32,000 bases of DNA from Nostoc punctiforme PCC 73102 (lineage in GTDB: Bacteria; Cyanobacteriota; Cyanobacteriia; Cyanobacteriales; Nostocaceae). The notes below the pieces were generated by a model. That model saw only the letters and a list, made by a program, of their open reading frames with translations. It was not told where the DNA came from and made no database searches. Positions 11,534-30,117 of this stretch are shown here, piece after piece. Position numbers and translations under genes: made by a program. Where the stretch lies: positions 2,490,001 through 2,522,000 of the forward strand of contig NC_010628.1 of NCBI RefSeq assembly GCF_000020025.1, given 5' to 3'. Every line of letters starts with the position of its first letter. The stretch's first letter is position 1.

Positions 11534-11537
11534 CGGA

Positions 11538-12209
11538 TCATCTCCTTTGTGTTTCTAAGCAACGTTGTTCTTGAGATGCGATTTGGTGAGCGATCGCATC
11601 AATAAAGGCATACACATCATGTCCGGCTCGTCCTGTTACTAAGTCTCTATCAACCACAATATTTCCCGGATCATTTGGTTGAGAATTTACAGGTGGCGGT
11701 ACGTAAACAGCACCAGCATTCGCAATATCCGCCAGCACCACTTCATGACAGATTACCTTTCGTCCTCGGAGTAGTTCTGGCATTGGAGTCAGTAACCACA
11801 ATCCATGACAGAGTAAACCTTTGATAATCTTGTGATTTGCCATTGCTTGAGCAAAAAACTGAATTGCTGGTGCAGTACGAGTTTGCTCTGGACTAATCTG
11901 CTGTCCTGGCGGTGGTTGAAAGTAGCGCAGACGTACACTGGTGTAGTTAGCTGCCATAATTACGGCCGCATATTCATTCACATCTACGCTTTGAAAGTCG
12001 ATATTGACATCTAGATATTGCAGAGATTTACCAATTTCATCCACATCACTAACAAATTGTACAGTTTCATTTCCCCAAAGCCGAGACATGAAATGCACAG
12101 TCGCCCCAAGTTCCTCAAAGTGTTGCCGATAAGCTGCAATTTCCTCAGGAATGAACTCTGTTTCTACAAGGATGGCGACTTTCTTTCCTTCTAGCATTTG
12201 GGTCACCAT
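11538..12209 (-). CDS. DJ-1/PfpI family protein
   Basis: The 223-aa ORF has KKVAILVETEF...LLCHGLWLL (Cys-His nucleophile elbow). AGGAG precedes the ATG. Confidence 0.7.
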   Translation of the reverse strand: MVTQMLEGKKVAILVETEFIPEEIAAYRQHFEELGATVHFMSRLWGNETVQFVSDVDEIGKSLQYLDVNIDFQSVDVNEYAAVIMAANYTSVRLRYFQPPPGQQISPEQTRTAPAIQFFAQAMANHKIIKGLLCHGLWLLTPMPELLRGRKVICHEVVLADIANAGAVYVPPPVNSQPNDPGNIVVDRDLVTGRAGHDVYAFIDAIAHQIASQEQRCLETQRR

Positions 12210-12219
12210 AACTTATCTC

Positions 12220-14235
12220 CTAAGTCTTGGGTGTAAATTCCACAATGATTTCTGCTTCTGAACCAAGTTCAAATTCTTTCTCTCCCAGTTCAATTTGAAA
12301 ATTATCAGGGTCGATTGTGGTGCGATCGCTACCATTAATGCTGACTCTGTTAACTTCCAAAGTATTAGGTCTAAAAAAATCTGGTAAAACATTGAGAGAG
12401 CGCTGGCGACAATGTTTGTCAGGTTTGAAATACAAACAGAAGGGTTCTTTTGTCACATAACTACTGATATAGATATGAGCCAAATAATTTAACTCAAAGG
12501 CATGGTATCCAGAAATTGCATGTCCGCCTTTTTGTGCATATTGCCCTACAGTAGTTGCATCTCCACTCTCACTGACTCGGAAGAAAATACCTTTATTGTC
12601 TTGGTCGAGAAAGAATAGATTCCAAAATGCGGCAGTTTCTCGTGCTAACCGCAAATACTCTTGTTTTTGGTCATTATCTTCATGACTGCAACCATGAAGA
12701 ATTAAGTAGGCTAATAGGGCTTGTTCTTGTTGCCAGAAGTCTTTAGTGTTGAACCAAGGAAACTCTAGTGGCGTTCCATTTTGAGGGTTACGTTCTAAAG
12801 TATCAAAGATTCCACCCCTAAATAGATCTACGCCAATCTCTGCCATCTTCATGCCTAAATTGTCTGCTAGCTTCATCAATTTATCAGCTAAACGTTGTGA
12901 TTCTTCGGCTTCTTGCGCGTTATCAGCAGCAGATTGGGCGGCTAAGGAGTAATAATAGTTAGCAACACGAGTCAGGTTCCAGGCTATCTTCAAATTGTGT
13001 CCGATAACGGCACGATTTTGTTGCCACCGCCAATTATGGTCTGGTTTCCAATCTCGCAAAAATCGCTCATTCACAAATGGAACGTTGGGATCAGGATCGG
13101 GAAATCTATCGGCAATGATTGTGGAGGCTGTTTTGAGAATCTTTTTGCAGGTTTCTAAAAATTTCCCGATTTCTTCATGACCATGATCAGTTAATGGCAA
13201 AGGTTCTAATGCCAAAATCACGTTAATTAAATAAGCCGGTATATGATCCCCAATCGAGTTCCAATTTTTTCTGGCTTGGTTATCACCAAGAGCAGGACTA
13301 TCCCAATTTAACGTCACAGAATCAAGGTGTGAGAAATAATCACCGTAAGCATGTTTACCGTACTCTGATTCTGGATCGATGAAGAAATCATTAAAGACAC
13401 GAACAGTCCGCTTGATATCATCAAGTACTTCCCAATCTAAAGTGATTCGATAGTACTGAGCTAATCCAGCTAAGGCGTAAATTTGTTCGTAAAGCGGGAT
13501 TGTATCTCTATCATCCTCATTGAGAGAACGTATATACAACTGATAACTGTACTTTGTCTTGCGCTTGCCAAATGCCCAAAAACAATGTTTGCCATCAGAT
13601 GTCAAACTGCGAAAAGTTTCACGTTGGTATTGAACTCCAGCACGAGCCGCTGAAAGATAGCGTTCACCTCCAGTTAGCAAGTAAGCAGAGGAAAGACCAT
13701 AGATCAGCCTGGAAAGAGTAGCACATTCTTGAATCTCATCATCTGTTGGTAAACCGATGATGTTTAGGTTAGTTCGGTAAAGAGCAAAATCATCGATTTC
13801 ATAGGTTTGTTTATTTGGAAATAAAAAGCCTAACCAACTATCTGCTAGGCGGGCAATTTGGGTCAGCCACCAATGAGTTTGCTCAAAAACTAATTCGTCT
13901 TGACCTCTATATGAATTTAGTAAGTTAACAATGCGGGCATCATATTGGCAGCTACCATTATTTTCTTGATACACCCCTTGCAGAACTACTAAGCTATCCG
14001 ACTGGATGTATTTTCTCACTAAATCTGCTGGTGAGGACTGATGAAAATCTTCAGGATTCGGGACGCGATCGCGGTTTATACCATCTAAATTTTGTAGAAA
14101 TTGAAATCGTGTTTCCCTACCAATTGCAACCTCGAACTCATCTCCACTACGGCATTTAATACTAAATTTTCCTTGCTCCTGTGCAATATCCGTAACTTTG
14201 CCCATCAGAGTTGTGTTCACAGTGAATTTTCTCAT
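12220..14235 (-). CDS. Large protein with probable AGE-type (N-acylglucosamine 2-epimerase-like) alpha/alpha-barrel core
   Basis: The 671-aa ORF is rich in Trp/aromatic helical repeats. The C-terminal GGHAISGYHAFELNYL resembles the conserved YH..R/E element of AGE/cellobiose-epimerase/YihS enzymes. It has extra N- and C-terminal domains. I made the assignment from memory, without a profile search. Confidence 0.4.
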   Translation of the reverse strand: MRKFTVNTTLMGKVTDIAQEQGKFSIKCRSGDEFEVAIGRETRFQFLQNLDGINRDRVPNPEDFHQSSPADLVRKYIQSDSLVVLQGVYQENNGSCQYDARIVNLLNSYRGQDELVFEQTHWWLTQIARLADSWLGFLFPNKQTYEIDDFALYRTNLNIIGLPTDDEIQECATLSRLIYGLSSAYLLTGGERYLSAARAGVQYQRETFRSLTSDGKHCFWAFGKRKTKYSYQLYIRSLNEDDRDTIPLYEQIYALAGLAQYYRITLDWEVLDDIKRTVRVFNDFFIDPESEYGKHAYGDYFSHLDSVTLNWDSPALGDNQARKNWNSIGDHIPAYLINVILALEPLPLTDHGHEEIGKFLETCKKILKTASTIIADRFPDPDPNVPFVNERFLRDWKPDHNWRWQQNRAVIGHNLKIAWNLTRVANYYYSLAAQSAADNAQEAEESQRLADKLMKLADNLGMKMAEIGVDLFRGGIFDTLERNPQNGTPLEFPWFNTKDFWQQEQALLAYLILHGCSHEDNDQKQEYLRLARETAAFWNLFFLDQDNKGIFFRVSESGDATTVGQYAQKGGHAISGYHAFELNYLAHIYISSYVTKEPFCLYFKPDKHCRQRSLNVLPDFFRPNTLEVNRVSINGSDRTTIDPDNFQIELGEKEFELGSEAEIIVEFTPKT

Positions 14236-14881
14236 TTTTATTATCCTTTCGGTGTTATTTCAACCAAATACTTTTTATTGCTGTTTGGAGATATCATGGC
14301 TAACTATTTGTAACGATATATCCAAAGCAAAATCTTGTTTTCAAGAGTTATGAAAAAACTAAAAATAGGTATTTTCAACAAGTTTCGTCAATGATTAATG
14401 AAAGACGGTTTTGCGAAACGCTAGAAAGAAAGATTCAGATTTACTTGACGATTCGGAGTTGAATCTATATTTTTTTCACAAAATGAATATAAATTCTGAA
14501 ACATAGCAATCCTAAATCATTTCTGAAAGCTTCTCTTTTTTATTTTCTACGAGACCTATGCGTTTACGGAAGCCGACACACCACAAGGCGTTTACTTAAT
14601 TGCTCAAAACTCTCAGATAGAATAGCTATAGTTACTTTTGTAGTGAAAATGAAAAAGTTTTCAAAAAACTTTGCTGCGTATTGAAATTTACCTTAATTTC
14701 CTCCGACTATAATTGAGTCAATCGGCACTAATTCTCTATCTATGGTTAGAGAATTATGAATCGTTAGATGTAGATAACCTTCTTTAAAAAAACTATAAAA
14801 ACTATAGCGGTTCTCACTTGAGTGGGATACAGTGTGGGAGGATGGAGTATATCAAGAACCATCTGCATCGATATCCCTCTT

Positions 14882-15296
14882 TCAAGAAACCGTATTTGCT
14901 TCGGGCTGAGGAATGAGTTCAAAACCTAAAGCTAAAGCCTTTTTTTGTAGGTTATTGATAACTTGTTCTTGGTAACGTTGTTCATAATAATCCATGCCAA
15001 TATCTTGATAGTTACCTCCAGTTGTCCAAAGTAGGTAAAAAATTCGTGCCAGCTTATGAGCAGTAGCAGTGATAGCTTTGGGCGTGCCAAGTCGAGAACG
15101 TAAGCGACGATAGAAAGCACAACTCGGCAGAATTGCTCTTGCCAGCTGTTTGTGTGGCTATTCGGAAAGCATTGGCAGCAGGGTTAACCACCAAGCGAGT
15201 TTAAGAACTTTTAACTTTACCAACAGTGATGCGATTACAAGGGCAAAGACCAAGTCAAGAAGTAAAGTGTTTAACAGTTGGGAATCGGGTAAAATC
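14882..15296 (-). pseudogene. IS110-family transposase, C-terminal remnant
   Basis: My hand translation reads DFTRFPTVKHFTS*LGLCPCNRITVGKVKSS*TRLVVNPAANAFRIATQTAGKSNSAEL. After a frameshift it continues CAFYRRLRSRLGTPKAITATAHKLARIFYLLWTTGGNYQDIGMDYYEQRYQEQVINNLQKKALALGFELIP...*. These are typical IS110 C-terminal motifs, interrupted by two in-frame stops and one frameshift. No N-terminal half is present. Confidence 0.7.
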
Positions 15297-15373
15297 GGTT
15301 TTGGTTCTGGAATTAGGTCGCTGAGAAATTCATATTGGGCACATGTCAGGTTGCTAGGGTATGCTTTACTCAT
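15297..15373 (-). pseudogene. IS5/IS4-type (DUF4096-like) transposase N-terminal stub
   Basis: MSKAYPSNLTCAQYEFLSDLIPEPKP resembles the conserved N-terminus of cyanobacterial IS5-family transposases. Similarity stops abruptly where the IS110 remnant begins. Confidence 0.4.
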
Positions 15374-16164
15374 GTCACTCTATCGGTGCTGTTTATTATC
15401 TATTCACAGCTTATACTGAGAGAGCTTTTTTACACCCTTTCCGACTTTTCAAACATTCTCTTAGAATCCAATACCTAAAACTCTGTATTTTCTAAATGTG
15501 TAAACCTTATATCTATATTTAAATTTGGCAAAAATTATTTTTATTTCAATCCATCTATTGGATGATGATTTTTAAGAAAATAAGGTTCTTCCGGTACTTT
15601 TATGGTGATTACTAAAGAACCGTAAATTTTAGTAACTACATTTTAATGAGGCTCATCCTTAAAATATAGATTGCGTAAGTCTTACAGCAGTTTCACTTGT
15701 ACTCAAATAATCCAAGCATCATGATTTATACTAGGGGCACAAATAATTCCAATTGATGGAAAAACATTTAAGGGTACTATGGAATTTGTTCATCAATCAC
15801 CTCGACATGACGATGATATTATTTGTTGGGGTAAATGTGCCATTTCCCACACTTACCATTAAACCATTATACCCTACAAAACTTTCTGGCACAAGGGATG
15901 CCGAAAACGATCGCCTACGGTGGGCGGAACGCCATCGCCTGCTTAGATACTCTCCCTTATTTCATCTATTTCAGCAAACTCATCCTCGATTGCGCGAACT
16001 GAGAATTATTACAGTTTACAATAATGATTATTATTTTTACTGAAATCTATGTGACCTGTAAATTCAACTACCGACAAGCCATTGAACCTATTTCAACGTC
16101 CCCGTCGTACTGCAACCCTGGGGCGAATGGTGCGGAAAACTACCCTGACTGTAGATGATCCGAT

Positions 16165-17325
16165 CTATCCAATGTTTGTGATGGAAGGTGAATGTAACTT
16201 TTTGGCTTCCTGGCTTAGGCATCCAGGTACTCTAGTTGTGAACTTATCAGCTGGACTTAGAGCAACATTGCCCCAGCGCATTACAGTTGCAGCAGCGTTA
16301 GACACTGAACCAATAGAGTATACAAGAACCAAATCGTTTTCGTGAATCTTGCCTAATTGTGCGCCGTGGTAAAGATTAGCAATGGGCAGCATTGGCCCAA
16401 TATTTGCATATTGGGGATAAAGGTTAATCGTCCGCTCCTGCTGGATGCCTAATGCTTCGGTACAGAGGGAGGAATACCAGGCAGTGGGTGTATTAAAAGC
16501 ACAAAATTGAATTTGCTCCAGGGTAACACCAGCCGCAGCGATCGCGCCCAAGCAGCACTCACGCAAATAATTTACAGCAGTCTCGCTCAGTACTTTGTTG
16601 GTGTGCTTGCCTGCTCGGATTAACATCCTTACATTACCCTCAGCATCCGTAGTAAATTCATTATAGAAGGTGTCGCAAGTTGCACATGTGTTCACAATTT
16701 TGGTGCTAATAATTCCCTGATTTTGTTTGAGCGCGCCAACCACAAAGGCTCCAGCACCGTCACCGAAAAACCATGAGAGAGTATCATTTTCATCAGTAAA
16801 GCGAGAGTAAGTGCAAGAGACTACCACCAACACATTACGATACTCTCCAGTTCGCACCAGCGCAGTAGCATTTTGCAGCGCAACCACAGCATTAGAACAG
16901 GTTGAATCAAGATTCCAAGCCGCACCGCGCAGATCGAGTTGAGCAGCAAGGAAAGCCGCATTGCCAGGTAGAATATTTTCTGGCCAAAGTGAAGCAACAA
17001 TCATCAAATCGACCTCTTCCGGAGACAGTTTTGCCGCTGCCAAAGCGTCCCTTGCTGCGCCATACTCTAGCGTGAGCGATGACTCCCCCGGACCCAATAT
17101 TCTGCGCTCAACAGTACCACGGAAAGGATCTTTGAGATACGGTGACATTTTTAATTCAAACTCATTGGTGGGGATGGAATCACCAGGCGAAAATACCTTT
17201 GATAGACTTTTTTGTTCAGCTGTTGCCACTAAATCTGGGTAATTCTTTCGCCAATAATCATTAGTGCGAACAACACTAGGAAAGTTGACTGCAATTGACC
17301 GAATTCCTACTGGTGGATATATCAT
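16165..17325 (-). CDS. Atypical KAS III-like (FabH-fold) condensing enzyme/acyltransferase
   Basis: The 386-aa ORF has an ATG preceded by AGGAG. It shows thiolase-fold blocks: NLDSTCSNAVVAL (Cys), FFGDGAGAFVV and YANIGPMLPI (Asn). The His block of FabH (MHQAN) aligns to AFNTP. It has a roughly 30-aa insertion near the N-terminus and a roughly 35-aa C-terminal tail. Confidence 0.75.
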   Translation of the reverse strand: MIYPPVGIRSIAVNFPSVVRTNDYWRKNYPDLVATAEQKSLSKVFSPGDSIPTNEFELKMSPYLKDPFRGTVERRILGPGESSLTLEYGAARDALAAAKLSPEEVDLMIVASLWPENILPGNAAFLAAQLDLRGAAWNLDSTCSNAVVALQNATALVRTGEYRNVLVVVSCTYSRFTDENDTLSWFFGDGAGAFVVGALKQNQGIISTKIVNTCATCDTFYNEFTTDAEGNVRMLIRAGKHTNKVLSETAVNYLRECCLGAIAAAGVTLEQIQFCAFNTPTAWYSSLCTEALGIQQERTINLYPQYANIGPMLPIANLYHGAQLGKIHENDLVLVYSIGSVSNAAATVMRWGNVALSPADKFTTRVPGCLSQEAKKLHSPSITNIG

Positions 17326-17340
17326 AATAAATCTCCTGAA

Positions 17341-17500
17341 AAAGTGAGGAAGTGGAGGATGCGGGGAAGAGGCAGGGGAGCAGGGGAGGATTAGGGGACA
17401 AGGAGGACAAGGAGGAATTATTGAACAAGTCTCTTCCTTGTCTCCCCCCTCTTCTTTGTCTCCCTTGTCTCTTCTCTATGCCCAATGTCCAATGCCCAAT
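17341..17500. repeat. Purine tract, then pyrimidine tract (imperfect long palindrome), then a tandem heptamer
   Basis: 17341-17416 is almost all purine and includes ggacaagga ggacaagga. 17431-17478 is almost all pyrimidine (ttccttgtctcc...tttgtctcccttgtctc). 17478-17500 is atgcccaatgtccaatgcccaat, about 3 copies of TG[C/T]CCAA. Confidence 0.6.
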
Positions 17501-17505
17501 TAATA

Positions 17506-19266
17506 TTACTTTCCATGAAAAATGAGACTGTTAATCCTACTACCAATGGGTGCTGGACGAGTCGGATCAATAATCACATCAACAACGAATGGAATAGTCA
17601 AGGCTAGTGCTTTTTCTAAAGCCGCTTCTAGATCGCACTCCCTGCTTACACGAATACCATCGGCTCCCATACCACGGGCAATCATCACGAAATCCGGGCT
17701 GGGAATCTCTGCATCCACATTGTGGAACCCCTCCATGTTCATACCTTGGTCGCACATGTTGTAACGTGCATCATTGAGTACAATCCAGACAGCAGGAATT
17801 TTGTGTTTGACGGCGGTAGTAATTTCGTTGTTCATCAGCATGGCACCATCACCGAGAATGGCTACAGCTTTGCGATTTCGCGCCAGTGCGGCACCTAAAA
17901 TACCCGTACCAGCATGTCCCATTGAACCAAATCCAGTACTTACCCGGTAACGCCCTGGTGCAGCAAATCGCAGTATATTTGTTCCCCAAGCAAAGGAGTT
18001 ACCAGCCTCGGTCATGATGATTGCATCGCTATTCTCGACAATTACCCTTTGAATCGCATCCATCAAAAATTCAGGACGTACTAAACCTTCCAGATGGGAC
18101 TTGATGACCTCGCGTTCAGGACGGGGTAGGGGTAACACTGATGAAGAACGAGAGATTTCTGGAAAATACTTCAGTATAGCCCTGACAAAAGCTCCGATAT
18201 CAGACTGAACGGAGAATGTCTCTGCATACGGATAAGCAGCTCCCGGTACTTCTGGGTCGATATCCACATGAACAAACCCCCGTGAAGGAACCATGACTGG
18301 GTTCCAAAATGAAGTAAATTCACCTAACTTAGTTCCCAAAACCAGTACGCGCAAAGGACGCTGTTCCTGCATATATTTGAGAACAGAGTTTTGCCCGCCG
18401 AAGCCAGTCACACCGACAAACTGAGGATGATCCTCAGGAAAGATACCTTTACCACGAGCTGATGACATCACCGCCGCTCCGGTTCTCTCAGCAAGTTGAC
18501 GAATTTCTAAAGCTGCATCTTTAGCACCAAAACCGACCCAAATGGCAAACGGCGCTTCACATAGCAGTTGTAAACATTTGCTGATAGTATCTTCTCCAGC
18601 CGTCACCAAAGTTGGTGAAAAATTCACATGGGGTAATGGTGTTGTTAGCAAACTTGTCTGGATGGTTCTGGGAATACTAATATGGGCGACAAAGCCACCT
18701 AATTTCCCTACACCTAGTGCCAGCCTGCGAGCAATTTCAGAGAGTTCCGAGTTGCATTCAACGGTGGTAGCATAATGAAATAATGTGCCTGAAGTAAAAA
18801 TGCCTGTATTAGACATTGTGTATTGGCTGGTTTCTTGAAAAGCCCAGCGTCCGCGCTGTGTTGCAGAGGTGCAAGGTGATACGAAAATAACTTTTGCTCC
18901 TTCCCAACGAGCCGCAAACAGCCCAGTCAAGGCATTAGTAATACCTGGACCGGTTGTGCTGAACACTACAACAGGATGTCCGCTAGCAAAGTATGACTCA
19001 ATAGCTGCGAATGCTGCTCCGGCTTCATGACGAAATTGCAGCACCTCGATTGAGCTTTGCTCTAGGCTAGCTATGAAGGGTGTGATTCCCCCTCCGAACA
19101 GACCAAAAGCATAGCGGACTCCCAAATTTTCCAGCGTCTTCACTAAAGCTGCTGCAACAGTTAAATCGCTTGTCTGTTCAATTGAGAATAGATCCGATTG
19201 GATAGCAGTGTTTCTCTGCAACTGATCCAATGAATTTAAGGTTTTGGTAATTGTTTCTACGTTCAC
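17506..19266 (-). CDS. Thiamine-diphosphate-dependent enzyme, acetolactate-synthase-like (candidate carboligase/acyloin synthase)
   Basis: The 586-aa ORF has a GTG start. It reads FRHEAGAAFAAIESYFASGHPVVVFSTTGPGITNALTGL (PYR domain with catalytic Glu) and has the ThDP motif GDGAMLMNNEITTAVKHKIPAVWIVLNDARYN. Confidence 0.85.
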   Translation of the reverse strand: MNVETITKTLNSLDQLQRNTAIQSDLFSIEQTSDLTVAAALVKTLENLGVRYAFGLFGGGITPFIASLEQSSIEVLQFRHEAGAAFAAIESYFASGHPVVVFSTTGPGITNALTGLFAARWEGAKVIFVSPCTSATQRGRWAFQETSQYTMSNTGIFTSGTLFHYATTVECNSELSEIARRLALGVGKLGGFVAHISIPRTIQTSLLTTPLPHVNFSPTLVTAGEDTISKCLQLLCEAPFAIWVGFGAKDAALEIRQLAERTGAAVMSSARGKGIFPEDHPQFVGVTGFGGQNSVLKYMQEQRPLRVLVLGTKLGEFTSFWNPVMVPSRGFVHVDIDPEVPGAAYPYAETFSVQSDIGAFVRAILKYFPEISRSSSVLPLPRPEREVIKSHLEGLVRPEFLMDAIQRVIVENSDAIIMTEAGNSFAWGTNILRFAAPGRYRVSTGFGSMGHAGTGILGAALARNRKAVAILGDGAMLMNNEITTAVKHKIPAVWIVLNDARYNMCDQGMNMEGFHNVDAEIPSPDFVMIARGMGADGIRVSRECDLEAALEKALALTIPFVVDVIIDPTRPAPIGSRINSLIFHGK

Positions 19267-19337
19267 GATCGCCTACTTTAATTTTACAAAAAATAAATTA
19301 ACTGGGGAGTAAAAGGGAGATAAAATAACTAACTCCT

Positions 19338-19365
19338 GTACAGACGCGATTAATTGCGTCTCTAC
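19338..19365 (-). repeat. Near-palindromic hairpin downstream of the CoA ligase stop
   Basis: gtacagacgcgattaattgcgtctctac has AGACGC/GCGTCT core arms with flanking GTA/TAC. The following sequence on the minus strand is only moderately T-rich. Confidence 0.5.
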
Positions 19366-19367
19366 TT

Positions 19368-19390
19368 CTAACTCCTAACTCCTAACTCCT
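19368..19390. repeat. Tandem heptamer (AACTCCT)n, about 3.3 copies, overlapping the 3' end and stop of the CoA ligase
   Basis: ctaactcctaactcctaactcct. A further partial copy lies at 19331-19337. The same heptamer occurs at 24048-24061. Confidence 0.8.
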
Positions 19391-20909
19391 GCCTTTTTTC
19401 AACAACCTGAGATATTGATTCCTGACGTAAAAATCGCTTTAATACTTTACCAGTGGAGTTTTTTGGAATTGAGTTTACAAAGTTAATTACACGGGGAACT
19501 TTATAAGCTGCCATCCTTTCATAACAAAAATCAATGATTTGTTGTTCGGTGATTGTCTGACTAGCTTTTAGGATAATATTTGCTTTGACAATCTCGCCTT
19601 TGAGAGGATCGGGAACGCCATATATAGCTACTTCAGCTACTGCTGGGTGTTGATAAATGACATTTTCAACTTCTGTTGGATATACCTTGAATCCAGAAAC
19701 AACGATCATGTCTTTTGAACGGTCAATTACGTAGAAAAAACCGTCTTCATCCATCCGACCAATGTCGCCAGTATGTAACCAACCATTTTTAATTACTTCT
19801 GCGGTTTCAAAAGGGCGGTTCCAATAACCAAGCATGACGTTGGCACCCTTAATTGTTATCTCGCCTAACTCACCTATTTCTACCTGATTACCATCACCAT
19901 CTACAATTTTCATTTCCACATTTGCAATGGGTGTTCCAACGCTACCTAGTTTGTAGTTCAAGTTGTGGTTATAAGCAGCAAATGGCGATGTTTCAGTTAG
20001 GCCATACCCTTCATGGATGACAAATCCAAACTTTTTATACCAATTTTCTGCTACTTGCAATGGCATTGGTGCTGCTGCTGAAAAGTAATAGCGGATGTTT
20101 TCCAGGTTATAGTTAGAAGTATCCATGTTCAGTAGTTTAATGAATACTGTCGGCACACCAAATAGCATTGTTACTTGATGTGTAGTGATGGTTTCTAGAA
20201 CTTGATCTGGGTCAAATCGACGCTGTAAAATGATAGTCGTACAAGCAGAAATACCAGCATTTAGAATTGCATTTTGTCCAAAACAATGGGATAAAGGTAA
20301 GAAAAGCAGTAAGCGATCGCTCTTTTGAATGCGATAGCAACAATTAGCACAATAGCTATTAAAAATAACATTGCCATGAGAAAGTGTAGCACCTTTAGGA
20401 AAGCCTGTAGTACCTGATGTATAAAGGATGCTTGCAGGATCATCGCGACTCATTTCAACGGCGCGTGCTTCAGGAGAAGATTTTGCCATCAGTTGTTTTA
20501 GACTAATACCTTTATTGGCTCTACCTTCTGCAATCAAAATATGTTGCAATTGAGGTAAGTCTGGCTCTTGAATATACTCGGTTTGCGACTCTGTTGTAAT
20601 AATTGCTTTGGCAGCACAATCGTTGAGAATGTATCTAACTTCATCGGTTTTGAGCATAATGTTGATTGAGACAGCAACCGCGCCAATTTTCAGAATGCCA
20701 AGATAAGAAATTACAAATTCTGGAATGTTTGGTAAAAATAAGGCTACACGATCTCTACGTCTAATATCCAAACTGCGTAGACCGTTAGCAACGCGATTTA
20801 CCATTTCATCAAGGTCTTTGTAAGTAAAAGATTCTTCTTCAAAAATTATGGCTGGTTTGTTGGGGAAAAGGTAGCAACTAAGCTCTAGATTTTGGGCAAT
20901 ATTCATCAT
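19368..20909 (-). CDS. AMP-dependent acyl-CoA ligase (4-coumarate/cinnamate-CoA-ligase-like or fatty-acyl-CoA-ligase-like)
   Basis: Adenylate-forming motifs are present: LYTSGTTGFPKGA, HEGYGLTETS, GWLHTGDIGRMDEDGFFYVIDRSKD and GKVLKR. AAGGTGA precedes the ATG. Confidence 0.9.
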   Translation of the reverse strand: MMNIAQNLELSCYLFPNKPAIIFEEESFTYKDLDEMVNRVANGLRSLDIRRRDRVALFLPNIPEFVISYLGILKIGAVAVSINIMLKTDEVRYILNDCAAKAIITTESQTEYIQEPDLPQLQHILIAEGRANKGISLKQLMAKSSPEARAVEMSRDDPASILYTSGTTGFPKGATLSHGNVIFNSYCANCCYRIQKSDRLLLFLPLSHCFGQNAILNAGISACTTIILQRRFDPDQVLETITTHQVTMLFGVPTVFIKLLNMDTSNYNLENIRYYFSAAAPMPLQVAENWYKKFGFVIHEGYGLTETSPFAAYNHNLNYKLGSVGTPIANVEMKIVDGDGNQVEIGELGEITIKGANVMLGYWNRPFETAEVIKNGWLHTGDIGRMDEDGFFYVIDRSKDMIVVSGFKVYPTEVENVIYQHPAVAEVAIYGVPDPLKGEIVKANIILKASQTITEQQIIDFCYERMAAYKVPRVINFVNSIPKNSTGKVLKRFLRQESISQVVEKRQELGVRS

Positions 20910-21080
20910 TGAATCACCTTAATATCTTAATTCGCAATTTGTCATTAAAAAATTTTTGCTTTGCTGATTGAGAGGATGAATTAGTCTCACGCAGAGGCGC
21001 AGAGAACGAGAAAAGAGAAATAAGGGAGTAGTTACATTGAAAGGTATAAATTAGTACCCTAATTCAGCAACACCAATTTT

Positions 21081-21094
21081 TAATTACAAATTAC
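21081..21094. repeat. Two copies of heptamer AATTAC[A/G], overlapping the PAL stop codon
   Basis: aattacaaattacg. The PAL TAA stop (21091-21093) lies inside the second copy. Confidence 0.7.
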
Positions 21095-22800
21095 GTTGAC
21101 TTTAAGCTCGAAAAAATATGCTCAACTGCTTGCACAATTAAACCACCACCAGCGATATCAGCTGAAATCCGGGCAATATGCTCATCTAAACATTGCTCGT
21201 TGTCGTTCCAAATGTATGGACGCACAGACGTTAGTGGCTTTCCAACTACCTCGCAGACTGCTGTGTATAACTGCACAGTATTGGGTGAGAGGCATGTACG
21301 TGCATCATAATGACCTTTCATCTTATATGTGCGGAGGTCAACAGCTTGAACTCCAAACATCAACGCGATCGCCATATAATTCTGAAATATGTCTACGGAA
21401 CGACGTGTCAAATTTGCGGAAATATAGCCTTGGCTGTTAATATTTTGATTAAATTGCTCGGCGTGGGTAGGAAAGCGATCGGCTAGGGAATTTCCATAGA
21501 AGCTCAACAGTGGCATAATCGAGTTTCCACTGATTTGCAAACCTTTGAGTCCCATATTAACTTTGCGATCGCTATTACCAACTAAAGAGGGTGGTAAGCC
21601 GTTGCTAAACTCTGGCGAGACAAGAAGTGCAATCTGCACATCGATGTGTTTGGCCAATAGCCCTATGTAATAACGTAGGCGATCCATTGTCACACCCACA
21701 TACTGTCCGAGAAAATTGCCGCCGTGATAACTAACTTGGTTCTCGACATCAATCAATGGGTTATCGGTGACTGAGTTCATTTCTACCTCGATTTGCTTGG
21801 TAATCTCTGATACCCCATCAACGATTGGCCCTATGAACTGTGCCAGACAGCGGAGAGAATAACGATCCTGTATCAGATCTTTACCACGGTATTCGTGTTT
21901 ACCATCCAACTCTTCACGAACTAAAGATGAATCTTTCAGCAGAGAAAACATTTGATCTGCTGTCCATAGTTGACCGGGATGTGGCTTGCACTGATGAATA
22001 AACGGGTGGAAAGATTGATTCGTTCCGTATAAACCTTGGATGGCTAAGGCGTGTACACCCATTGTCAGAGCGAGCAAAACTTTCGCATCGTACACACAGT
22101 TAGCTGCAATACCTGTCATGACTGAGGTGCCATTCATCATTGCTAAACCTTCTTTCGGTTGCAATTGCAACTTTGGCAAACCCAAACGAGACAAGGCTGT
22201 AACGGCATCCATTTCTTTACCGTCGAAGTCAACTGTAAAGCTAGGATCTAGACCGATTAGTGCCCCAGTAATGTAGGATAATGGCACCAAATCGCCGCTA
22301 GCACCGATAGAGCCAAACTCATAGACATGGGGTGTCACGCCAGCGTTGAGGAAAGTTTCAATCCGCTGAATAAGTTCGAGTCGTATACCAGACGCACCAT
22401 ACAAATGTGAATTTGCACGTAAGAGCATAGCTGCACGCACGTCTGCTAACGATAATTTGTTTCCTGCGCCGGATTTCAGAAACCAAATTAAATTAGTCTG
22501 AAGTTCCGCTGCTTGTTCGCGAGAGATGACAACATCTGCCATACCGCCAAAGCCAGATGTCACCCCGTAAATTGGCTGTGCTGTTTCGACTGCATTGTTA
22601 ATGTAATCACAAGATGCTTGAACACCCCGAATGACATCTGCATTATCAGTTAAGCGCACCTGTGTTCCATGACGAGCAACATTTACAACCTCGTCGATTG
22701 TCAGATTGCGATCGCCTACAGTTACGATTGAATCTGAACTATTAGTGAAAGGTATTTGCCAAGAACGCGTTATGTTCTGTTGTAGAGATGTTATATTCAT
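21091..22800 (-). CDS. pal: Phenylalanine ammonia-lyase (MIO-dependent aromatic amino acid ammonia-lyase)
   Basis: The 569-aa ORF has the MIO-forming triad in GSIGASGDLVPLSYI and the Phe-Leu selectivity pair in NLIWFLKSGAG (PAL-type, not the His-Leu of TAL). Its length and sequence agree with my recollection of the characterised N. punctiforme PAL, and it is very similar to Anabaena variabilis PAL. Confidence 0.93.
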   Translation of the reverse strand: MNITSLQQNITRSWQIPFTNSSDSIVTVGDRNLTIDEVVNVARHGTQVRLTDNADVIRGVQASCDYINNAVETAQPIYGVTSGFGGMADVVISREQAAELQTNLIWFLKSGAGNKLSLADVRAAMLLRANSHLYGASGIRLELIQRIETFLNAGVTPHVYEFGSIGASGDLVPLSYITGALIGLDPSFTVDFDGKEMDAVTALSRLGLPKLQLQPKEGLAMMNGTSVMTGIAANCVYDAKVLLALTMGVHALAIQGLYGTNQSFHPFIHQCKPHPGQLWTADQMFSLLKDSSLVREELDGKHEYRGKDLIQDRYSLRCLAQFIGPIVDGVSEITKQIEVEMNSVTDNPLIDVENQVSYHGGNFLGQYVGVTMDRLRYYIGLLAKHIDVQIALLVSPEFSNGLPPSLVGNSDRKVNMGLKGLQISGNSIMPLLSFYGNSLADRFPTHAEQFNQNINSQGYISANLTRRSVDIFQNYMAIALMFGVQAVDLRTYKMKGHYDARTCLSPNTVQLYTAVCEVVGKPLTSVRPYIWNDNEQCLDEHIARISADIAGGGLIVQAVEHIFSSLKST

Positions 22801-22857
22801 ACACTGGTTATTCTCAAATTTTAACAGGCCTCTATCAAGCCTTTCGGAATGTATCTT

Positions 22858-22911
22858 AATTACGAATTACGTTAGGTAGCGGGGCGTAGCCCATTACGAA
22901 TTACGAATTAC
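22858..22911. repeat. Tandem heptamer (AATTACG)n interrupted by a 21-nt insert
   Basis: aattacgaattacg (22858-22871), then ttaggtagcggggcgtagccc (22872-22892), then attacgaattacgaattac (22893-22911). The array abuts the FabH stop at 22911-22913. Confidence 0.8.
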
Positions 22912-23912
22912 TATAGACCCCACTCAAAAATAGCAGCACCCCAAGAAAGTCCTGCTCCAAACCCAGCTAAAGCAACAACATCGTGCGCTTTAATTTGCCC
23001 TCGCCGAACAGCTTCATCCAAAGCTAGGGGAATTGAAGCAGCAGAAGTATTTCCGTAATTTGCTAAATTGCTAATGATTTTTTCATCAGGAATTCCTAAA
23101 CGTTGAGCCACAGCCTCTAAAATCCGCTGATTGGCCTGATGCATCAATAGCCAGTCTACCTGTTTAACATCCAGACCTGCCCGGAATAGTGCCTTTTCAA
23201 TAACTTCAGGGACTTTTTGAATAGCAAATCGGTAAACTTCTTGTCCGTTCATTGCAATAGGTTTATATGTACCTTGACCAACGCTAATATTATCAACAAG
23301 TACTTTCTCTTCCTCCTGGAATTCCAATTTCAAATGCTGATTTTGCGTGCCATTAGTATGAAGTTGAAAACCAAGGAGATAATCATATTCACTTGCTTGT
23401 AAAACCACTGCTCCTGCTCCATCACCAAATAGAATGCAGGTACGTCGGTCAGACCAATCTACCCACCGTGAAAGAACTTCAGCACCAATGAGAAGAACAT
23501 TTTGATAAGTACCAGTCCGCATAAATTGGGCAGCAGTTACCAAACCAAAAACAAAACCAGAGCAAGCTGCTGTTAAATCAAAAGCTACAGCTTGGGTAGC
23601 TCCGAGTCGAGCTTGGATTTGACTGGCATTACCAAACAAATCATCAGGAGTAGATGTAGCTAAGATAATTAAATCTAAGTCTTGTGCTGTTATACCTGCC
23701 ATATCTATGGCTTTTTGAGCCGCTTCAGTAGCCATAGTTGTGAGCGAGTTTTTGGCTGGAAGAAGATGGCGACGGTGAATTCCTGTGCGAGATTTGATCC
23801 AATCATCACAAGTAACCACCATTTGATTGAGTTGATGATTATCTAAGCACTGATCTGGAACCGCAGAGCCAGTCCCTGTCAAAACAATACCTTGTCTTAC
23901 TAAGGATTTCAT
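22911..23912 (-). CDS. fabH: Beta-ketoacyl-ACP synthase III
   Basis: The 333-aa ORF has a canonical triad context: DLTAACSGFVFGL (Cys), LLMHQANQRI (His) and YGNTSAASIPLALDEA (Asn). Confidence 0.9.
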   Translation of the reverse strand: MKSLVRQGIVLTGTGSAVPDQCLDNHQLNQMVVTCDDWIKSRTGIHRRHLLPAKNSLTTMATEAAQKAIDMAGITAQDLDLIILATSTPDDLFGNASQIQARLGATQAVAFDLTAACSGFVFGLVTAAQFMRTGTYQNVLLIGAEVLSRWVDWSDRRTCILFGDGAGAVVLQASEYDYLLGFQLHTNGTQNQHLKLEFQEEEKVLVDNISVGQGTYKPIAMNGQEVYRFAIQKVPEVIEKALFRAGLDVKQVDWLLMHQANQRILEAVAQRLGIPDEKIISNLANYGNTSAASIPLALDEAVRRGQIKAHDVVALAGFGAGLSWGAAIFEWGL

Positions 23913-23973
23913 CTGCTTTAATTGCTAATTATTTTGTGTAGTTAAAATCTTTGATTCTGCTTTACCTTTGTAA

Positions 23974-24042
23974 GGTGTGTTATGCCGTAGGCTAACGCAC
24001 CATCCTAGATTTTCGGTGCGTTAGCTTACGGCATAACACACC
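23974..24042 (-). repeat. 28-bp-stem hairpin between KAS II and KAS III
   Basis: The arms are 23974-24001 (ggtgtgttatgccgtaggctaacgcacc) and 24015-24042 (ggtgcgttagcttacggcataacacacc). They are complementary apart from one G:T position, with a 13-nt loop. The hairpin starts immediately after the KAS II stop. No T-run follows it on the minus strand. Confidence 0.7.
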
Positions 24043-25311
24043 CTAATAACTCCTAACTCCTAGCTCAAATTTTTTAAAAGCTAAAGAGACATTATGTCCT
24101 CCAAAACCAAAAGAGTTAGAAAGAGCAACATCTACTCTTTGAGTTCGACTTTTATGGGGAACATAGTCTAAATCACAGTTTGGATCTGGCTGTTCTAAAT
24201 TGATTGTTGGTGGAATTAAATCAAGAGCCACACTCTTGACTGTAGCAACAGCTTCGATGCCTCCAGCAGCGCCCAAAAGATGGCCAGTCATTGATTTTGT
24301 GGAACTAATAGGAATTTGGAAAGCGCGATCGCCAAGAGCTTTTTTAATCGCTAAAGTTTCTATGGCATCATTAGCTAAGGTGCTAGTGCCGTGAGCATTA
24401 ATATAACTGACTTCGTTGGGGAATATGCCACCATCTTTTAAAGCTAGTTCCATAGCTCTCATGACTCCCTCTCCGCTAGGAGTTGGAGCAGTCATGTGGT
24501 AAGCATCACAAGTCAGACCATAACCAACAATTTCTGCATAGATTTTTGCTCCACGGCCAAGAGCGTGTTCTAATTCCTCTAAGAATAAAATGCCTGCTCC
24601 TTCTCCCATCACAAAACCATTGCGATCACGATCGAACGGACGAGAGGCACGGGTGGGTTCTTCATTTGCGGTTGATAGCGTCTTGGCAGAACCGAAGGCA
24701 GCTATAGACAGAGGTGTAATCACAGCTTCTGTACCACCACAAATCATTCCTAAAGCATGACCTAACTGAATTGAGCGAAAAGCTTCTCCGATAGCATTAC
24801 CTCCAGCAGCGCAAGCTGAAACAGTACAAAAGTTTGGCCCTTTAGCTCCTGTGTAAATTGCTATTAGTCCAGCTGCCATGTTAGCTATTGTCATCGGCAC
24901 TGTAAAAGGACTACAGCGTTTAGATCCCTGAGTCAGGAGAACTTTTTCTTGCTCCTCTACAGTATAGAGGCCGCCCATACCGTTGCCCACAATAACGCCC
25001 ACTTGAGTAGCATTAGAGTCATTAATTTCAAAACCAGCATCGGCGATCGCTTGAAGACTTGCAGAGATTCCAAATTGAGCAAAACGAGATATATGCTTAA
25101 CATCTTTGCGTTCTAGATAATCATAAGGGTTAAAGTCTCTAACTTCGCCTGCAATTCTACATATATGCAAAGAAGCATCAAATTGGGTAATCAAATCAAT
25201 TCCACTTCGTCCCGCAATCAATCCTTCCCAATATTCCTTGATGGTATTTCCTAAAGGGGTAATAGCTCCCATACCTGTAACTACAACCCGCCGGATATTT
25301 TTGCTAATCAT
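24043..25311 (-). CDS. fabF: Beta-ketoacyl-ACP synthase II
   Basis: The 422-aa ORF reads VSACAAGGNAIGEAF (Cys), YHMTAP (His), INAHGTST (His) and SSTKSMTGH. The end FGFGGHNVSLAFKKF is followed by a 7-aa tail ELGVRSY encoded by heptamer repeats. Confidence 0.92.
   Translation of the reverse strand: MISKNIRRVVVTGMGAITPLGNTIKEYWEGLIAGRSGIDLITQFDASLHICRIAGEVRDFNPYDYLERKDVKHISRFAQFGISASLQAIADAGFEINDSNATQVGVIVGNGMGGLYTVEEQEKVLLTQGSKRCSPFTVPMTIANMAAGLIAIYTGAKGPNFCTVSACAAGGNAIGEAFRSIQLGHALGMICGGTEAVITPLSIAAFGSAKTLSTANEEPTRASRPFDRDRNGFVMGEGAGILFLEELEHALGRGAKIYAEIVGYGLTCDAYHMTAPTPSGEGVMRAMELALKDGGIFPNEVSYINAHGTSTLANDAIETLAIKKALGDRAFQIPISSTKSMTGHLLGAAGGIEAVATVKSVALDLIPPTINLEQPDPNCDLDYVPHKSRTQRVDVALSNSFGFGGHNVSLAFKKFELGVRSY
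24048..24061. repeat. Two copies of heptamer AACTCCT inside the 3' end of KAS II
   Basis: aactcctaactcct. It has the same unit and orientation as the array at 19368-19390. Confidence 0.7.
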
Positions 25312-25320
25312 AAGTAAAAC

Positions 25321-25566
25321 TCAAATAAAAACTTTCTGATTGATGTAATTAACGATTTGTTGTACTGTTACAAGTTGCTTTGCTTCCCGATGAGGAATTT
25401 TTGTATTGAAAGTATCCTCTAGTGTTTGGAACATTGCTATCAAGTCTAAATAATCTGCCCCTAAATCTTGAATAAGATTAGCATCTAGGGTGATTTTTTG
25501 CTGTTCATTTGCTAATTCTTTGGCAACAACAGCTTGGACTGTGTTAAATATATCTTGTTGGGTCAT
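25321..25566 (-). CDS. Acyl carrier protein homologue lacking the phosphopantetheine-attachment serine
   Basis: The 81-aa ORF has the helix II motif LIQDLGADYLDLIAMFQTLED, against canonical DLGADSLD. The Tyr codon TAT is at 25450-25452. The protein contains no Ser. AAGAGG precedes the ATG, and its stop is 9 nt before the KAS II start. Confidence 0.75.
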   Translation of the reverse strand: MTQQDIFNTVQAVVAKELANEQQKITLDANLIQDLGADYLDLIAMFQTLEDTFNTKIPHREAKQLVTVQQIVNYINQKVFI

Positions 25567-26524: not shown

Positions 26525-26959
26525 CTACTTTTGAGATGATATTTTAAATGCAGGCTTACCATCTTCTAAAGTTAGAAGAAGATAACACTTGCCAAATGTA
26601 TCATCATTCCAGCGATGAACGGGAATTCCAGAACAGCCTAAAGATTCTGTCATAACTTTTGGCAAATCTTGTAACGTAATATTTTTAACTGAATTCAATG
26701 ATGAAATGGCTTCTGCAAGTATAAGAACTGAACCGATTTCACTTAATCGTCTACTTTCAAGTGAAATGGTATTACCATGTTGAAGCTCATTTAACTCGAA
26801 CTCGGATACATTTAATCCAAGAAGATTGAAGCCCTTCTGAATTTCAGGAATTCCGATTTGAGTTGATGCAGAATTAATTGTAGTTGAGATAGACATAATT
26901 TCAGGAGTTTCTATTTGAGTGGATACAGACTTAATTGGAGTTGCAATTGATAGAGACAT
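26525..26959 (-). CDS. Hypothetical protein with N-terminal tandem 20-aa repeat
   Basis: The 144-aa ORF starts with two repeat units, SLSIATPIKSVSTQIETPEIM and SISTTINSASTQIGIPEIQK. I recognise no family. Coding status is supported only by ORF length and the absence of competing ORFs. Confidence 0.4.
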   Translation of the reverse strand: MSLSIATPIKSVSTQIETPEIMSISTTINSASTQIGIPEIQKGFNLLGLNVSEFELNELQHGNTISLESRRLSEIGSVLILAEAISSLNSVKNITLQDLPKVMTESLGCSGIPVHRWNDDTFGKCYLLLTLEDGKPAFKISSQK

Positions 26960-28575: not shown

Positions 28576-30117
28576 TCAAGATTCAGCACTGATAAAAGAC
28601 CATTCAACATCTTCAGGTTGAATATCTCTCACGATGTTTTGTTCTGGGAAGGCTGCAAGAAAGAATCGATTCACTAACTGCTGCCAATTTTCCCATAGTA
28701 GTATCCACCACGGGAACACGAATGGATACTCTACTTCCTCAACTCCCAAAGCCTCACATTGCTGTTTCCATTCACGTTTGCAAAACTCAAGGTATTTACC
28801 ATTTCCTCCTTTTTCTATCATCGATTTCGATTTTTTTGCTGATGTGCGTAGAATAAATTTTTTGATATCTTTATTAGCAACTAGTAATTTTGAGAGTGAA
28901 CCCATGTGATAAGAAATGTTATACCCGGCATTTTGACTTGTTGGTAGCACAGGTATAATTTGCTCAAATTTACTTGGATTAATTAAGCTCATAGCAAAAA
29001 CTCTGGCTGCTATCTTTGTCAGTAATAATGTACTGCCACTAGTCATCAGCTTAGTTGCTTTTGTAGTCATACCAAACTCAGGATCTTGATCTAAAACGAA
29101 ATTAGTTTTTTTGTTGACCCAAATCCAATTTACTGCTTCAAAAGGAGGATAAACTTGTTTGAAAACATCCATTTGTCCTTCAAAACCAACACACTTGAGA
29201 ATGATATCTGCCTCAATTTTAGTTCCATCACTAGTGACGACACTATTGCTATCTATAAAATCAATACTGTCTTTTTTAAATTCAGCTTTCCCTACTTTAT
29301 GTGCTAAAAAAATAAAATCGGAAATGATGGGAACAGTTCTTTGATTAATAGAAAAACCATCCAAGTTTTCCTTCATAAAATTAGTTCCAGCCCAATCATA
29401 CATTTTCCAACTCATTTTTAATAGAGGAGCTACAGGAGCTAGTCTCATGGAATTGAGCCAAAACATTACCATGCGCGGTAAAACTATATTTATTGTCTTG
29501 GCGATGATAGTGACATGCGTGGCACCGTTAAGCAGCGCAGTCCGAGCATTTTCCATCGCAAAAGCACCGCAACCGATAATTGCAACTTTTTTACCACGGT
29601 ACTCGGAAATAGGCATATCATCTGAAATTCCATAGCGAATTAAACCTTGGAAATTTTTTTCTCCAGGGAAGTGGACTGTACGCCGTTTATGCAGTCTACC
29701 GCCAGCATAATAAATGCCATCTACTTCTAATGATTTGTTAGCATTATCGTGTTTGTAATAGACGCGGTATTTGCTGTCAGAAATATCTTCTATGGAGAAA
29801 ACTTCTGACTTAAAGATGATATGTTTACCAATCCCGTGTACATTGATGAAGCGTTCAGCATGAGCCAAAATTTCATCTCTCGGTGTAAACTCGCTTGGTA
29901 ATCCATTAGGATAATCCATGTCAAAGCGATATTCTGGTTCGGGGATTTGTACATAGCTTGACTGGTTGGCAAAGGTTCTCCAAACTCCTCCTGTAGCATC
30001 ATTTTTATCTAGAATGACAAATTCTATCCCTGCATCCTGAAAAATCTTTGCTGCTGTGATACCTCGAAAACCTGCTCCAATAATGGCAATTTTTTTGGGC
30101 TTTGTTAGTTGTTGCAT
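28576..30117 (-). CDS. Flavin-containing monooxygenase-like FAD/NAD(P)-binding oxidoreductase
   Basis: There are two dinucleotide-binding motifs, KKIAIIGAGFRGITAAK and KKVAIIGCGAFAMENA, with ATGGVW after the first. I set the start to the ATG at 30115-30117 (MQQLTK), preceded by GGAGA. The track start at 30132 is TTG. Confidence 0.8.
   Translation of the reverse strand: MQQLTKPKKIAIIGAGFRGITAAKIFQDAGIEFVILDKNDATGGVWRTFANQSSYVQIPEPEYRFDMDYPNGLPSEFTPRDEILAHAERFINVHGIGKHIIFKSEVFSIEDISDSKYRVYYKHDNANKSLEVDGIYYAGGRLHKRRTVHFPGEKNFQGLIRYGISDDMPISEYRGKKVAIIGCGAFAMENARTALLNGATHVTIIAKTINIVLPRMVMFWLNSMRLAPVAPLLKMSWKMYDWAGTNFMKENLDGFSINQRTVPIISDFIFLAHKVGKAEFKKDSIDFIDSNSVVTSDGTKIEADIILKCVGFEGQMDVFKQVYPPFEAVNWIWVNKKTNFVLDQDPEFGMTTKATKLMTSGSTLLLTKIAARVFAMSLINPSKFEQIIPVLPTSQNAGYNISYHMGSLSKLLVANKDIKKFILRTSAKKSKSMIEKGGNGKYLEFCKREWKQQCEALGVEEVEYPFVFPWWILLWENWQQLVNRFFLAAFPEQNIVRDIQPEDVEWSFISAES

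Follow-up and report, generated by a model that had tools for sequence, protein, structure and literature searches.

Furanolide biosynthesis was defined by D'Agostino et al. in the cyanobacterin (cyb) gene cluster, as summarised in PMC13288894, PMC12395478 and PMC8777810. A tyrosine ammonia-lyase (TAL), CybB, and CybC make coumaroyl-coenzyme A (CoA) (PMC13288894, PMC12395478), CybE condenses two alpha-keto acids into an acyloin (PMC13288894, PMC12395478, PMC8777810), and CybF, which uses the CoA thioester directly, builds the butenolide by O-acylation, a Morita-Baylis-Hillman-type carbon-carbon coupling and a 1,4-hydride shift (PMC13288894, PMC12395478). Nodularia sp. NIES-3585 has the same four signature enzymes in its maculalactone (mac) cluster, which adds a 3-deoxy-D-arabino-heptulosonate 7-phosphate (DAHP) synthase, a chorismate mutase and a tyrosinase for precursor supply and is without fatty acid synthase (FAS)-like genes (PMC13288894); expression of the mac cluster has been achieved in E. 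coli BAP1. Nostoclides N1 and N2 have been made enzymatically with a CoA ligase, CybE and CybF alone; CybE and CybF are substrate-tolerant, accepting 385 of 420 substrate combinations, and CybF also takes N-acetylcysteamine (SNAC) thioesters (PMC12395478). Here we compare with these systems a block of seven genes at positions 16165-25566 of a 32,000-nucleotide stretch of Nostoc punctiforme PCC 73102 (assembly GCF_000020025.1, contig NC_010628.1, positions 2,490,001 to 2,522,000), hereafter the window, in which the gene for a phenylalanine ammonia-lyase (PAL) lies among genes of furanolide and FAS type.

Nostoclides N1/N2 and nostovalerolactone were isolated from N. punctiforme by Krumbholz et al. 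in 2022 (PMC9324945), whose main text divides the pks1 cluster of this organism into nvl and ncl sub-clusters, identifies PAL as RS10365 and NclD, and assigns the PAL neighbourhood to nostoclides N1/N2 through homology to the characterised cyanobacterin cluster. The three compounds are reported to act jointly as signals, regulating much of the specialised metabolism of the strain. Because of this assignment the locus is not an orphan without a product, as a preliminary description prepared from the DNA alone had supposed; a product has been assigned to it since 2022, and what the PAL neighbourhood of N. punctiforme encodes, a furanolide pathway to nostoclides N1/N2, is a closed question. The block and the published ncl are the same locus: PAL is identical to NpPAL (PDB 2NYF), the block adjoins a sub-cluster with a Baeyer-Villiger-type monooxygenase, as described in the main text of PMC9324945, and there is no difference at the sequence level. 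We hold it to be highly probable that the block represents the nostoclide sub-cluster, ncl, of pks1, that its four downstream genes constitute a complete furanolide core, and that the three upstream genes, an FAS-like trio, are a lineage-specific and selectively maintained accessory rather than a part of that core. The only new elements in the present analysis are a conserved serine-less acyl carrier protein (ACP)-like protein with its FabF and FabH partners, and the figures on distribution; neither these three genes nor the missing serine is discussed in the main text of PMC9324945.

The interval 16165-25566 is tiled exactly by seven co-directional open reading frames (ORFs) on the minus strand, with intergenic gaps of 9 to 181 bp; the stop codon of the ACP-like gene lies 9 nt ahead of the FabF start. 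From the upstream end these are:

25321-25566, minus strand: ACP-like protein without the phosphopantetheine-attachment serine (DLGADYLD), 81 aa; Pfam PP-binding, 2e-9
24043-25311, minus strand: FabF paralogue (beta-ketoacyl-ACP synthase II, KAS II), 422 aa; ketoacyl-synt N and C domains, 1e-54 and 1e-37
22911-23912, minus strand: FabH paralogue (KAS III), 333 aa; ACP_syn_III, 7e-33, and its C domain, 1e-37
21091-22800, minus strand: PAL (NpPAL; NclD; CybB homologue), making trans-cinnamate, 569 aa; Lyase_aromatic, 7e-147
19368-20909, minus strand: predicted cinnamate:CoA ligase (CybC homologue), 513 aa; AMP-binding and C domain, 1e-99
17506-19266, minus strand: predicted acyloin synthase dependent on thiamine diphosphate (ThDP) (CybE homologue, ScyA-related), 586 aa; TPP_enzyme N, M and C domains
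16165-17325, minus strand: predicted furanolide synthase (FS; CybF homologue), KAS III-like, 386 aa; weak ACP_syn_III, 4e-17 and 3e-7

The ORF listing, Pfam and NCBIfam bear out the seven co-directional genes and the domain content given in the preliminary description, the ACP having only the signature of the fold and missing its attachment serine. Pfam also upholds its statement that the block has no ketoreductase (KR), dehydratase (DH) or enoyl reductase (ER); malonyl transferase, chain-length factor (CLF) and cyclases are likewise missing from the seven block genes. The GTG start of the ThDP gene is supported by full-length alignment to its counterpart in Atlanticothrix silvestris CENA357 (L085; loci other than the window are cited by such numbers).

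The four downstream genes were compared with those of locus L010, from [Scytonema hofmanni] UTEX 2349, which is Tolypothrix PCC 9009, the source of the reference cyb cluster (PMC8777810). A second locus, L004 of S. hofmannii PCC 7110, had been considered as the cyb cluster and was ruled out, since PMC8777810 gives Tolypothrix PCC 9009/UTEX 2349. The lyase, ligase, ThDP enzyme and FS of the window are collinear with CybB, CybC, CybE and CybF of L010, and the logic is the same, the products of the ammonia-lyase and CoA ligase on one side and of the ThDP-dependent acyloin-forming enzyme on the other being fused by FS. PAL is 71% identical to CybB, and over its 569 aa it is 100% identical to PDB 2NYF, the N. 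punctiforme phenylalanine ammonia lyase, save for the MIO cofactor position in the crystal, which places the window in N. punctiforme PCC 73102 / ATCC 29133 or a strain that cannot be told apart from it; the preliminary description was correct in crediting Moffitt et al. (2007) with the characterisation of this enzyme, and the paper stands in the reference list of PMC8750797. The ligase, which adjoins the lyase in the same order as in L010, is 69% identical to CybC and 73% identical to the ligase of L004. The succession of PAL and CoA ligase had rightly been read as a route to cinnamoyl-CoA. The ThDP enzyme is 67% identical to CybE. It passes the NCBIfam model NF035927 for a 'ScyA-related TPP-binding enzyme' (1037 bits against a cut-off of 1000), so that the comparison with ScyA of scytonemin biosynthesis drawn earlier was apt, and ScyA likewise forms an acyloin from two alpha-keto acids; the window enzyme falls below the cut-off of the ScyA equivalog model, however (918 against 1020 bits), its product would pass to a lactone-forming enzyme of KAS III-like type, and no ScyB- or ScyC-like domains occur among window ORFs of at least 100 aa.

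FS is 70% identical to CybF, and it has 1245 homologues at E<=1e-20, of which those with names are almost all from Nostocales or other cyanobacteria. Its closest solved structure is a FabH, at 97 bits. Residues C143, N278 and N308 are invariant in the homologue alignment (A1), giving a Cys-Asn-Asn pattern, shared by the homologues in L003 and L004, where FabH has a Cys-His-Asn triad; in the alignment FS reads NTPT where the window's own FabH has HQAN. This pattern, which keeps the cysteine and has asparagine for the decarboxylation histidine of FabH, does not suggest a decarboxylative ketosynthase. Carboligation and acyl-transfer chemistry had been predicted for the ThDP enzyme and its non-canonical ketosynthase-like neighbour, and that much stands, with the amendment that this is the main pathway and not the second chemistry that it had been taken for.

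From these homologies a pathway can be proposed. PAL converts phenylalanine to cinnamate, a reaction established experimentally for this exact protein. The ligase would convert cinnamate to cinnamoyl-CoA, as its identity to CybC (69%) suggests, and the ThDP enzyme, by its likeness to CybE (67%), would join two alpha-keto acids into an acyloin acid. From the skeleton of the nostoclides one of these would be expected to be an arylpyruvate and the other a branched aliphatic keto acid. FS, given its identity to CybF (70%), would then O-acylate the acyloin with cinnamoyl-CoA as the acyl donor and, as has been shown for CybF, close the butenolide ring through a Morita-Baylis-Hillman-type carbon-carbon bond and a 1,4-hydride shift; the published end products of the locus are the butenolides nostoclide N1 and N2. 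The product class that marks clusters of the cyb/ncl/mac type is a 2(5H)-furanone or gamma-butyrolactone bearing aryl and alkyl groups. No homologue of CybA, CybD or CybG-K, the halogenase CybI included, was found among the window genes when these were compared with L010, and the locus therefore fits a simple, non-halogenated product. The window differs from cyb in two further respects: it has a lyase of the Phe-Leu rather than the Tyr-His class, and it has the ACP-like, FabF and FabH genes, which cyb is without.

A genome scan with alignment A1 returned 80 loci, the window's own genome not being among them; the best match was Nostoc sp. C117, at 92%. All four core genes occur in the same order in 50 of these loci (four of them also with the trio), while 22 have only the adjacent pair of ThDP enzyme and FS, three have ligase, ThDP enzyme and FS, three have FS alone, and two have lyase, ligase and FS with no match to the ThDP enzyme; some of the incomplete loci end at contig ends. 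The ThDP enzyme and FS are adjacent in 72 of the 80. The FAS-like trio accompanies the complete core in Nostoc sp. C117, Nostoc sp. ChiSLP01, Atlanticothrix silvestris CENA357 and one metagenome-assembled genome (MAG), the four loci closest to the window in the scan, where all seven genes are collinear; the other 46 of the 50 complete loci have no FabH, FabF or ACP. Among the genomes found, most of which are Nostocales, the core of four genes is widespread, and the FAS-like trio is a rare addition and not a core feature. Synteny had been put forward in the preliminary description as a check on the block as a whole: conservation holds for the core (50 of 80 loci) and fails for the ketosynthase and ACP genes, which rarely co-occur with PAL or TAL and ligase (4 of 50).

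The lyase of the window carries the motif WFLK (in the region of residues 103-110), as against WYHK in CybB, a TAL. Among fetched loci with a lyase the Phe-Leu class occurs in 11 and the Tyr-His class (Trp/Arg/Cys-Tyr-His-Lys) in 43, and the class may predict whether the products derive from cinnamoyl or coumaroyl units. Six of the Phe-Leu loci (L009, L013, L016, L040, L056 and L083) have no FabH, FabF or ACP nearby; a cinnamate-type furanolide locus therefore has no need of FAS-like genes.

Two observations on the distribution stand apart from this argument. The 22 loci with the pair only, having neither lyase nor ligase within 10 kb, include L003, L064, L066-L069, L072, L074-L077, L080-L082 and L084. 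Two or three furanolide-type loci may also share a genome, as in Nostoc sp. C117 (L005, L084), S. hofmannii PCC 7110 (L003, L004) and Nostoc sp. DedQUE08 (L036, L058, L077).

Turning to the trio, FabF and FabH have intact catalytic residues and are clearly of cyanobacterial FAS origin, when set beside the type II FAS components FabH, FabF and AcpP. FabF scores 623 bits with TIGR03150 (cut-off 494) and 610 bits with PDB 1E5M (a KAS II chain), and retains the motifs SACAAG, NAHGTST, KSMTGH and GFGGHN with their catalytic Cys, His, His and Lys. It belongs to a clade with 78-99% identity, all from genomes with the block, beyond which identity falls to a plateau of 70-76% with other cyanobacterial FabFs; the FabFs of many other cyanobacterial orders are 75-100% identical among themselves. 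FabH, with its Cys-His-Asn triad intact, scores 372-414 bits with the NCBIfam FabH models (372 with TIGR00747, cut-off 292) and forms a small clade of 82-99% identity, followed by a plateau of 68-77% with FabHs of many cyanobacterial orders; in the more distant relatives it is the best-conserved protein of the block, at 88-89%. Against Atlanticothrix (L085) each of the seven genes has a Ka/Ks in the range 0.09-0.25, with Ks at about 0.5-0.8; the values are 0.14 for FabH, 0.17 for FabF and 0.25 for the ACP-like gene. We read the trio as diverged paralogues under purifying selection, that is, as clade-specific accessory genes. That these are simply the housekeeping FAS genes is ruled out by the small clades confined to genomes with the block, the 68-77% plateau elsewhere and the serine-less ACP.

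The ACP-like protein reads DLGADYLDLIA where carrier proteins have DLGADSLD, the tyrosine codon being TAT, and the window copy contains no serine anywhere in its 81 aa. It passes TIGR00517 closely (73 bits, cut-off 70). The tyrosine is kept at the attachment site in the window and seven relatives, eight genomes in all (L005, L006, L007/L085, L008, L086, L088); the ACPs of the outgroup cassettes L090 and L093 retain serine (DSL). Copies in relatives lie at:

L005, 1625-1870: ACP-like protein
L006, 1537-1782: ACP-like protein
L085, 9747-9992: ACP-like protein
L086, 9743-9988: ACP-like protein
L088, 9747-9992: ACP-like protein

Searched against 1.84 billion representative proteins, the ACP-like protein matched a single 50%-identity cluster at E<=1e-30, and everything else was at most 48% identical. 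Among the best 150 representative ACP matches serine occupies the site in 134; 16 are without it, one of them with tyrosine (P0376, 46% identical). Because tyrosine replaces the attachment serine and is conserved in eight genomes, the ACP-like protein is, on the evidence of its sequence, not a competent carrier and cannot be phosphopantetheinylated; for that reason the trio is not a self-sufficient condensing system, and the idea of a discrete one within the block loses its footing. The case is a caution against taking 'ACP + KS', an ACP beside a ketosynthase (KS), as a working condensing system. In Plasmodium the mitochondrial ACP, as described in PMC8547962, is likewise an ACP fold without the attachment serine that is kept for a non-carrier role, although its lineage and context (Fe-S cluster assembly) are unrelated and the likeness is one of description.

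The surroundings of the trio were followed in relatives, where the usual order is a polyketide synthase (PKS) or nonribosomal peptide synthetase (NRPS), in some cases preceded by a fatty acyl-AMP ligase (FAAL), then hypothetical genes including one for a 144-aa protein, a thioesterase, sometimes a DAHP synthase, the ACP-like gene, FabF, FabH and the furanolide core. Upstream of the trio are NRPS genes in L085 and L088, and FAAL-PKS and NRPS genes in L086. Seven genomes show both the trio and the core, and in each the trio directly adjoins the core and is co-oriented with it. The 144-aa protein (26525-26959 in the window) is 74-98% identical in L005, L085, L086 and L088, where it always lies upstream of the ACP-like and FabF genes, and has a Ka/Ks of 0.31; it had no Pfam or NCBIfam match. 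In L088 (GCA_032153685.1, JASEJY010000006.1:213374-234666) the block is decaying: it has lost FabH and PAL, and its ligase is broken into two ORFs, the ACP-like gene, FabF, ThDP enzyme and FS being intact, and a tyrosinase gene lies nearby. A DAHP synthase stands between the thioesterase and the ACP-like gene in L085; had it been an orthologue of CybA, the trio would have had furanolide genes on both sides, but at about 20% identity it is not.

For the closest outgroup FabF/FabH paralogues we looked at five genomic contexts (L089-L093), and furanolide genes are absent from all of them. A FAAL lies within about 6 kb in three: L089 has FabF-FabH-FAAL, L090 has FabF-ACP-FabH-FabA beside a cluster of FAAL, ACP, CylC-type halogenase and type I PKS, and L092 has a FAAL within 6 kb of FabF-FabH-FabA. 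The remaining two, L091 and L093, have their FabF/FabH paralogues inside PKS or NRPS clusters. The cassettes beside FAAL genes (L089, L090, L092) may be dedicated modules for fatty-acyl supply. Those of L090 and L092 have a dehydratase partner, whereas the window cassette is without one, has lost the serine and is joined to a furanolide core.

Of the explanations for the trio, the one that survives best is a tentative one, that it serves a neighbouring FAAL-primed assembly line (nvl in the window, PKS-NRPS in relatives), where it might supply or tune a medium-chain fatty-acyl starter by way of housekeeping holo-ACP and reductive enzymes, the serine-less ACP-like protein being perhaps a regulator or docking partner. 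Every relative with visible upstream DNA has the trio between NRPS or FAAL-PKS/NRPS genes and the core, and the nearest outgroup cassettes have a FAAL within about 6 kb in three of five cases and PKS or NRPS genes in the other two, none with furanolide genes; in L088 the ACP-like gene and FabF are kept despite the loss of FabH and PAL and the splitting of the ligase. The main text of PMC9324945, moreover, proposes that the nvl pathway starts from octanoate, loaded by the FAAL domain of NvlI. This support is purely syntenic, however, and the upstream assembly lines vary between genomes, the DAHP synthase of L085 brings a gene of aromatic precursor supply in between thioesterase and ACP-like gene (even if it is not a CybA orthologue), and no biochemical precedent for a serine-less ACP in starter supply was found. 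On synteny alone a link to fatty-acyl starter supply for a FAAL-primed line is the likeliest role, if still a doubtful one. It is possible, and we would claim little beyond that, that the serine-less ACP-like protein with intact FabF and FabH is a functional non-carrier module, the ACP-like protein perhaps being a ketosynthase-docking mimic that gates chain length or flux and couples the FAAL-PKS starter supply of nostovalerolactone to the nostoclide pathway. The role of the trio could reveal how two adjacent pathways to signalling metabolites are supplied or coordinated.

Less probable is a role in diversifying the furanolide pathway, for example through alternative thioester donors or extended cinnamoyl units offered to FS, with minor furanolides as the result. 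The adjoining and co-oriented position of the trio in all seven genomes that show both sets would agree with this, as would the broad tolerance of CybE and CybF (385 of 420) and the acceptance of SNAC thioesters by CybF (PMC12395478); against it, the main text of PMC9324945 reports no such products from N. punctiforme, the carrier serine is missing, and 46 of 50 complete furanolide loci do without the trio. We think it more doubtful again that the trio is a functionless, decaying relic of a duplicated FAS cassette in which the ACP serine was the first loss. The serine is indeed gone, the ACP-like protein is far more diverged (at most 48% identical to any other ACP) than FabF and FabH (70-77%), and neighbouring genes are genuinely decaying in L088; yet Ka/Ks remains at 0.14-0.25 at a Ks of about 0.5 against Atlanticothrix, the reading frames are intact, the tyrosine is invariant in eight genomes, and FabH is the best conserved protein in distant relatives (88-89%).

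Very unlikely, finally, is the proposal of the preliminary description that cinnamoyl-CoA from PAL and the ligase primes a dedicated FabH/FabF/ACP system towards an unassigned phenyl-terminated fatty acid or polyketide: seven co-directional, closely spaced genes, a block kept in Nostoc C117, ChiSLP01, Atlanticothrix CENA357 and one MAG, and a FabH and FabF that are catalytically intact and under purifying selection could be cited for it, but the ACP-like protein has no attachment serine, malonyl transferase, KR, DH, ER and CLF are all missing from the block, PAL or TAL and ligase accompany the ThDP enzyme and FS in 46 loci without the trio (six with the PAL-type motif), the CoA thioester is used directly by CybF (PMC13288894, PMC12395478), ligase product and KAS III-like enzyme are already experimental partners in cyb (PMC12395478), PMC9324945 assigns a product to the neighbourhood, and a FabH 68-77% identical to those of many cyanobacterial orders gives no hint of a radically different primer pocket. 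The initiation by analogy with flexirubins and aryl polyenes that had been suggested alongside falls with it, the FlxA model scoring 291 bits against a cut-off of 700 and CLF, KR, DH and a functional ACP all being missing.

The assignment of the block to ncl, with its four-gene furanolide core and accessory trio, has several points to weigh against it. The link between ncl and nostoclides is based, in the main text of PMC9324945, on overexpression of a regulator, transcription and homology, and neither a knockout nor heterologous expression of the ncl locus is reported there. The letter D suits PAL whichever end of the seven-gene block the naming starts from. The keto-acid substrates and the specificity of the ligase are inferred by homology only. 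The seven genes may be co-transcribed, given gaps of 9-181 bp and terminator signals not above chance, and a functional tie between the ACP-like/FabF/FabH trio and the furanolide core may exist. Promoter and terminator scans gave numbers at or below shuffle expectation (34 against 38.9 expected and 7 against 11.4 expected).

Further upstream the window contains the following genes:

26525-26959, minus strand: 144-aa protein without family match, conserved upstream of the ACP-like gene in relatives
28576-30132, minus strand: monooxygenase of flavin-containing (FMO) type; Pfam FMO-like/Pyr_redox
30574-31023, minus strand: SRPBCC cyclase-like protein; Pfam Polyketide_cyc2
31301-31987, minus strand: thioesterase; Pfam Thioesterase

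The segment 28576-31987 probably belongs, as its distal end, to the neighbouring sub-cluster for nostovalerolactone, nvl. The main text of PMC9324945 places a putative Baeyer-Villiger monooxygenase, NvlQ, in nvl, which adjoins ncl, and from that description we infer that the FMO-like ORF at 28576-30132 is NvlQ.

Scans of the window for Rfam families, tRNAs and tandem repeats gave nothing relevant to the block. A heptamer repeat, ACTCCTA in 3.9 copies (19364-19390), covers the 3' terminus of the ligase gene, stop codon included; short tandem repeats of a similar kind are common in Nostoc genomes. Downstream of FS is a 1.9-kb AT-rich stretch (14236-16164, GC content 0.35-0.38) whose ORFs are all short (37-96 aa) and which matched neither Rfam families nor tRNAs. 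It is followed on the minus strand by a co-directional set (8397-14235) comprising a 671-aa protein without family match, two DJ-1/PfpI-family proteins, a second ThDP enzyme, which is most like benzoylformate decarboxylase (323 bits, cut-off 493), and a 150-aa protein of unknown kind; this set is contiguous with FS in independent assemblies (L001) and absent from syntenic relatives. Two adjoining short ORFs at 7442-8357 (minus strand), with HTH_32/HTH_29 and partial DDE_3 domains, resemble a split transposase of IS630/Tc1 type, which is probably degraded. Beyond them a run of tailoring-type genes on the minus strand (1515-7254) encodes a tandem-SnoaL protein (352 aa), an alpha/beta-hydrolase or esterase, a cupin, a SnoaL_2 protein, a GMC oxidoreductase and a glyoxalase-family protein, and may be another small metabolic cluster.

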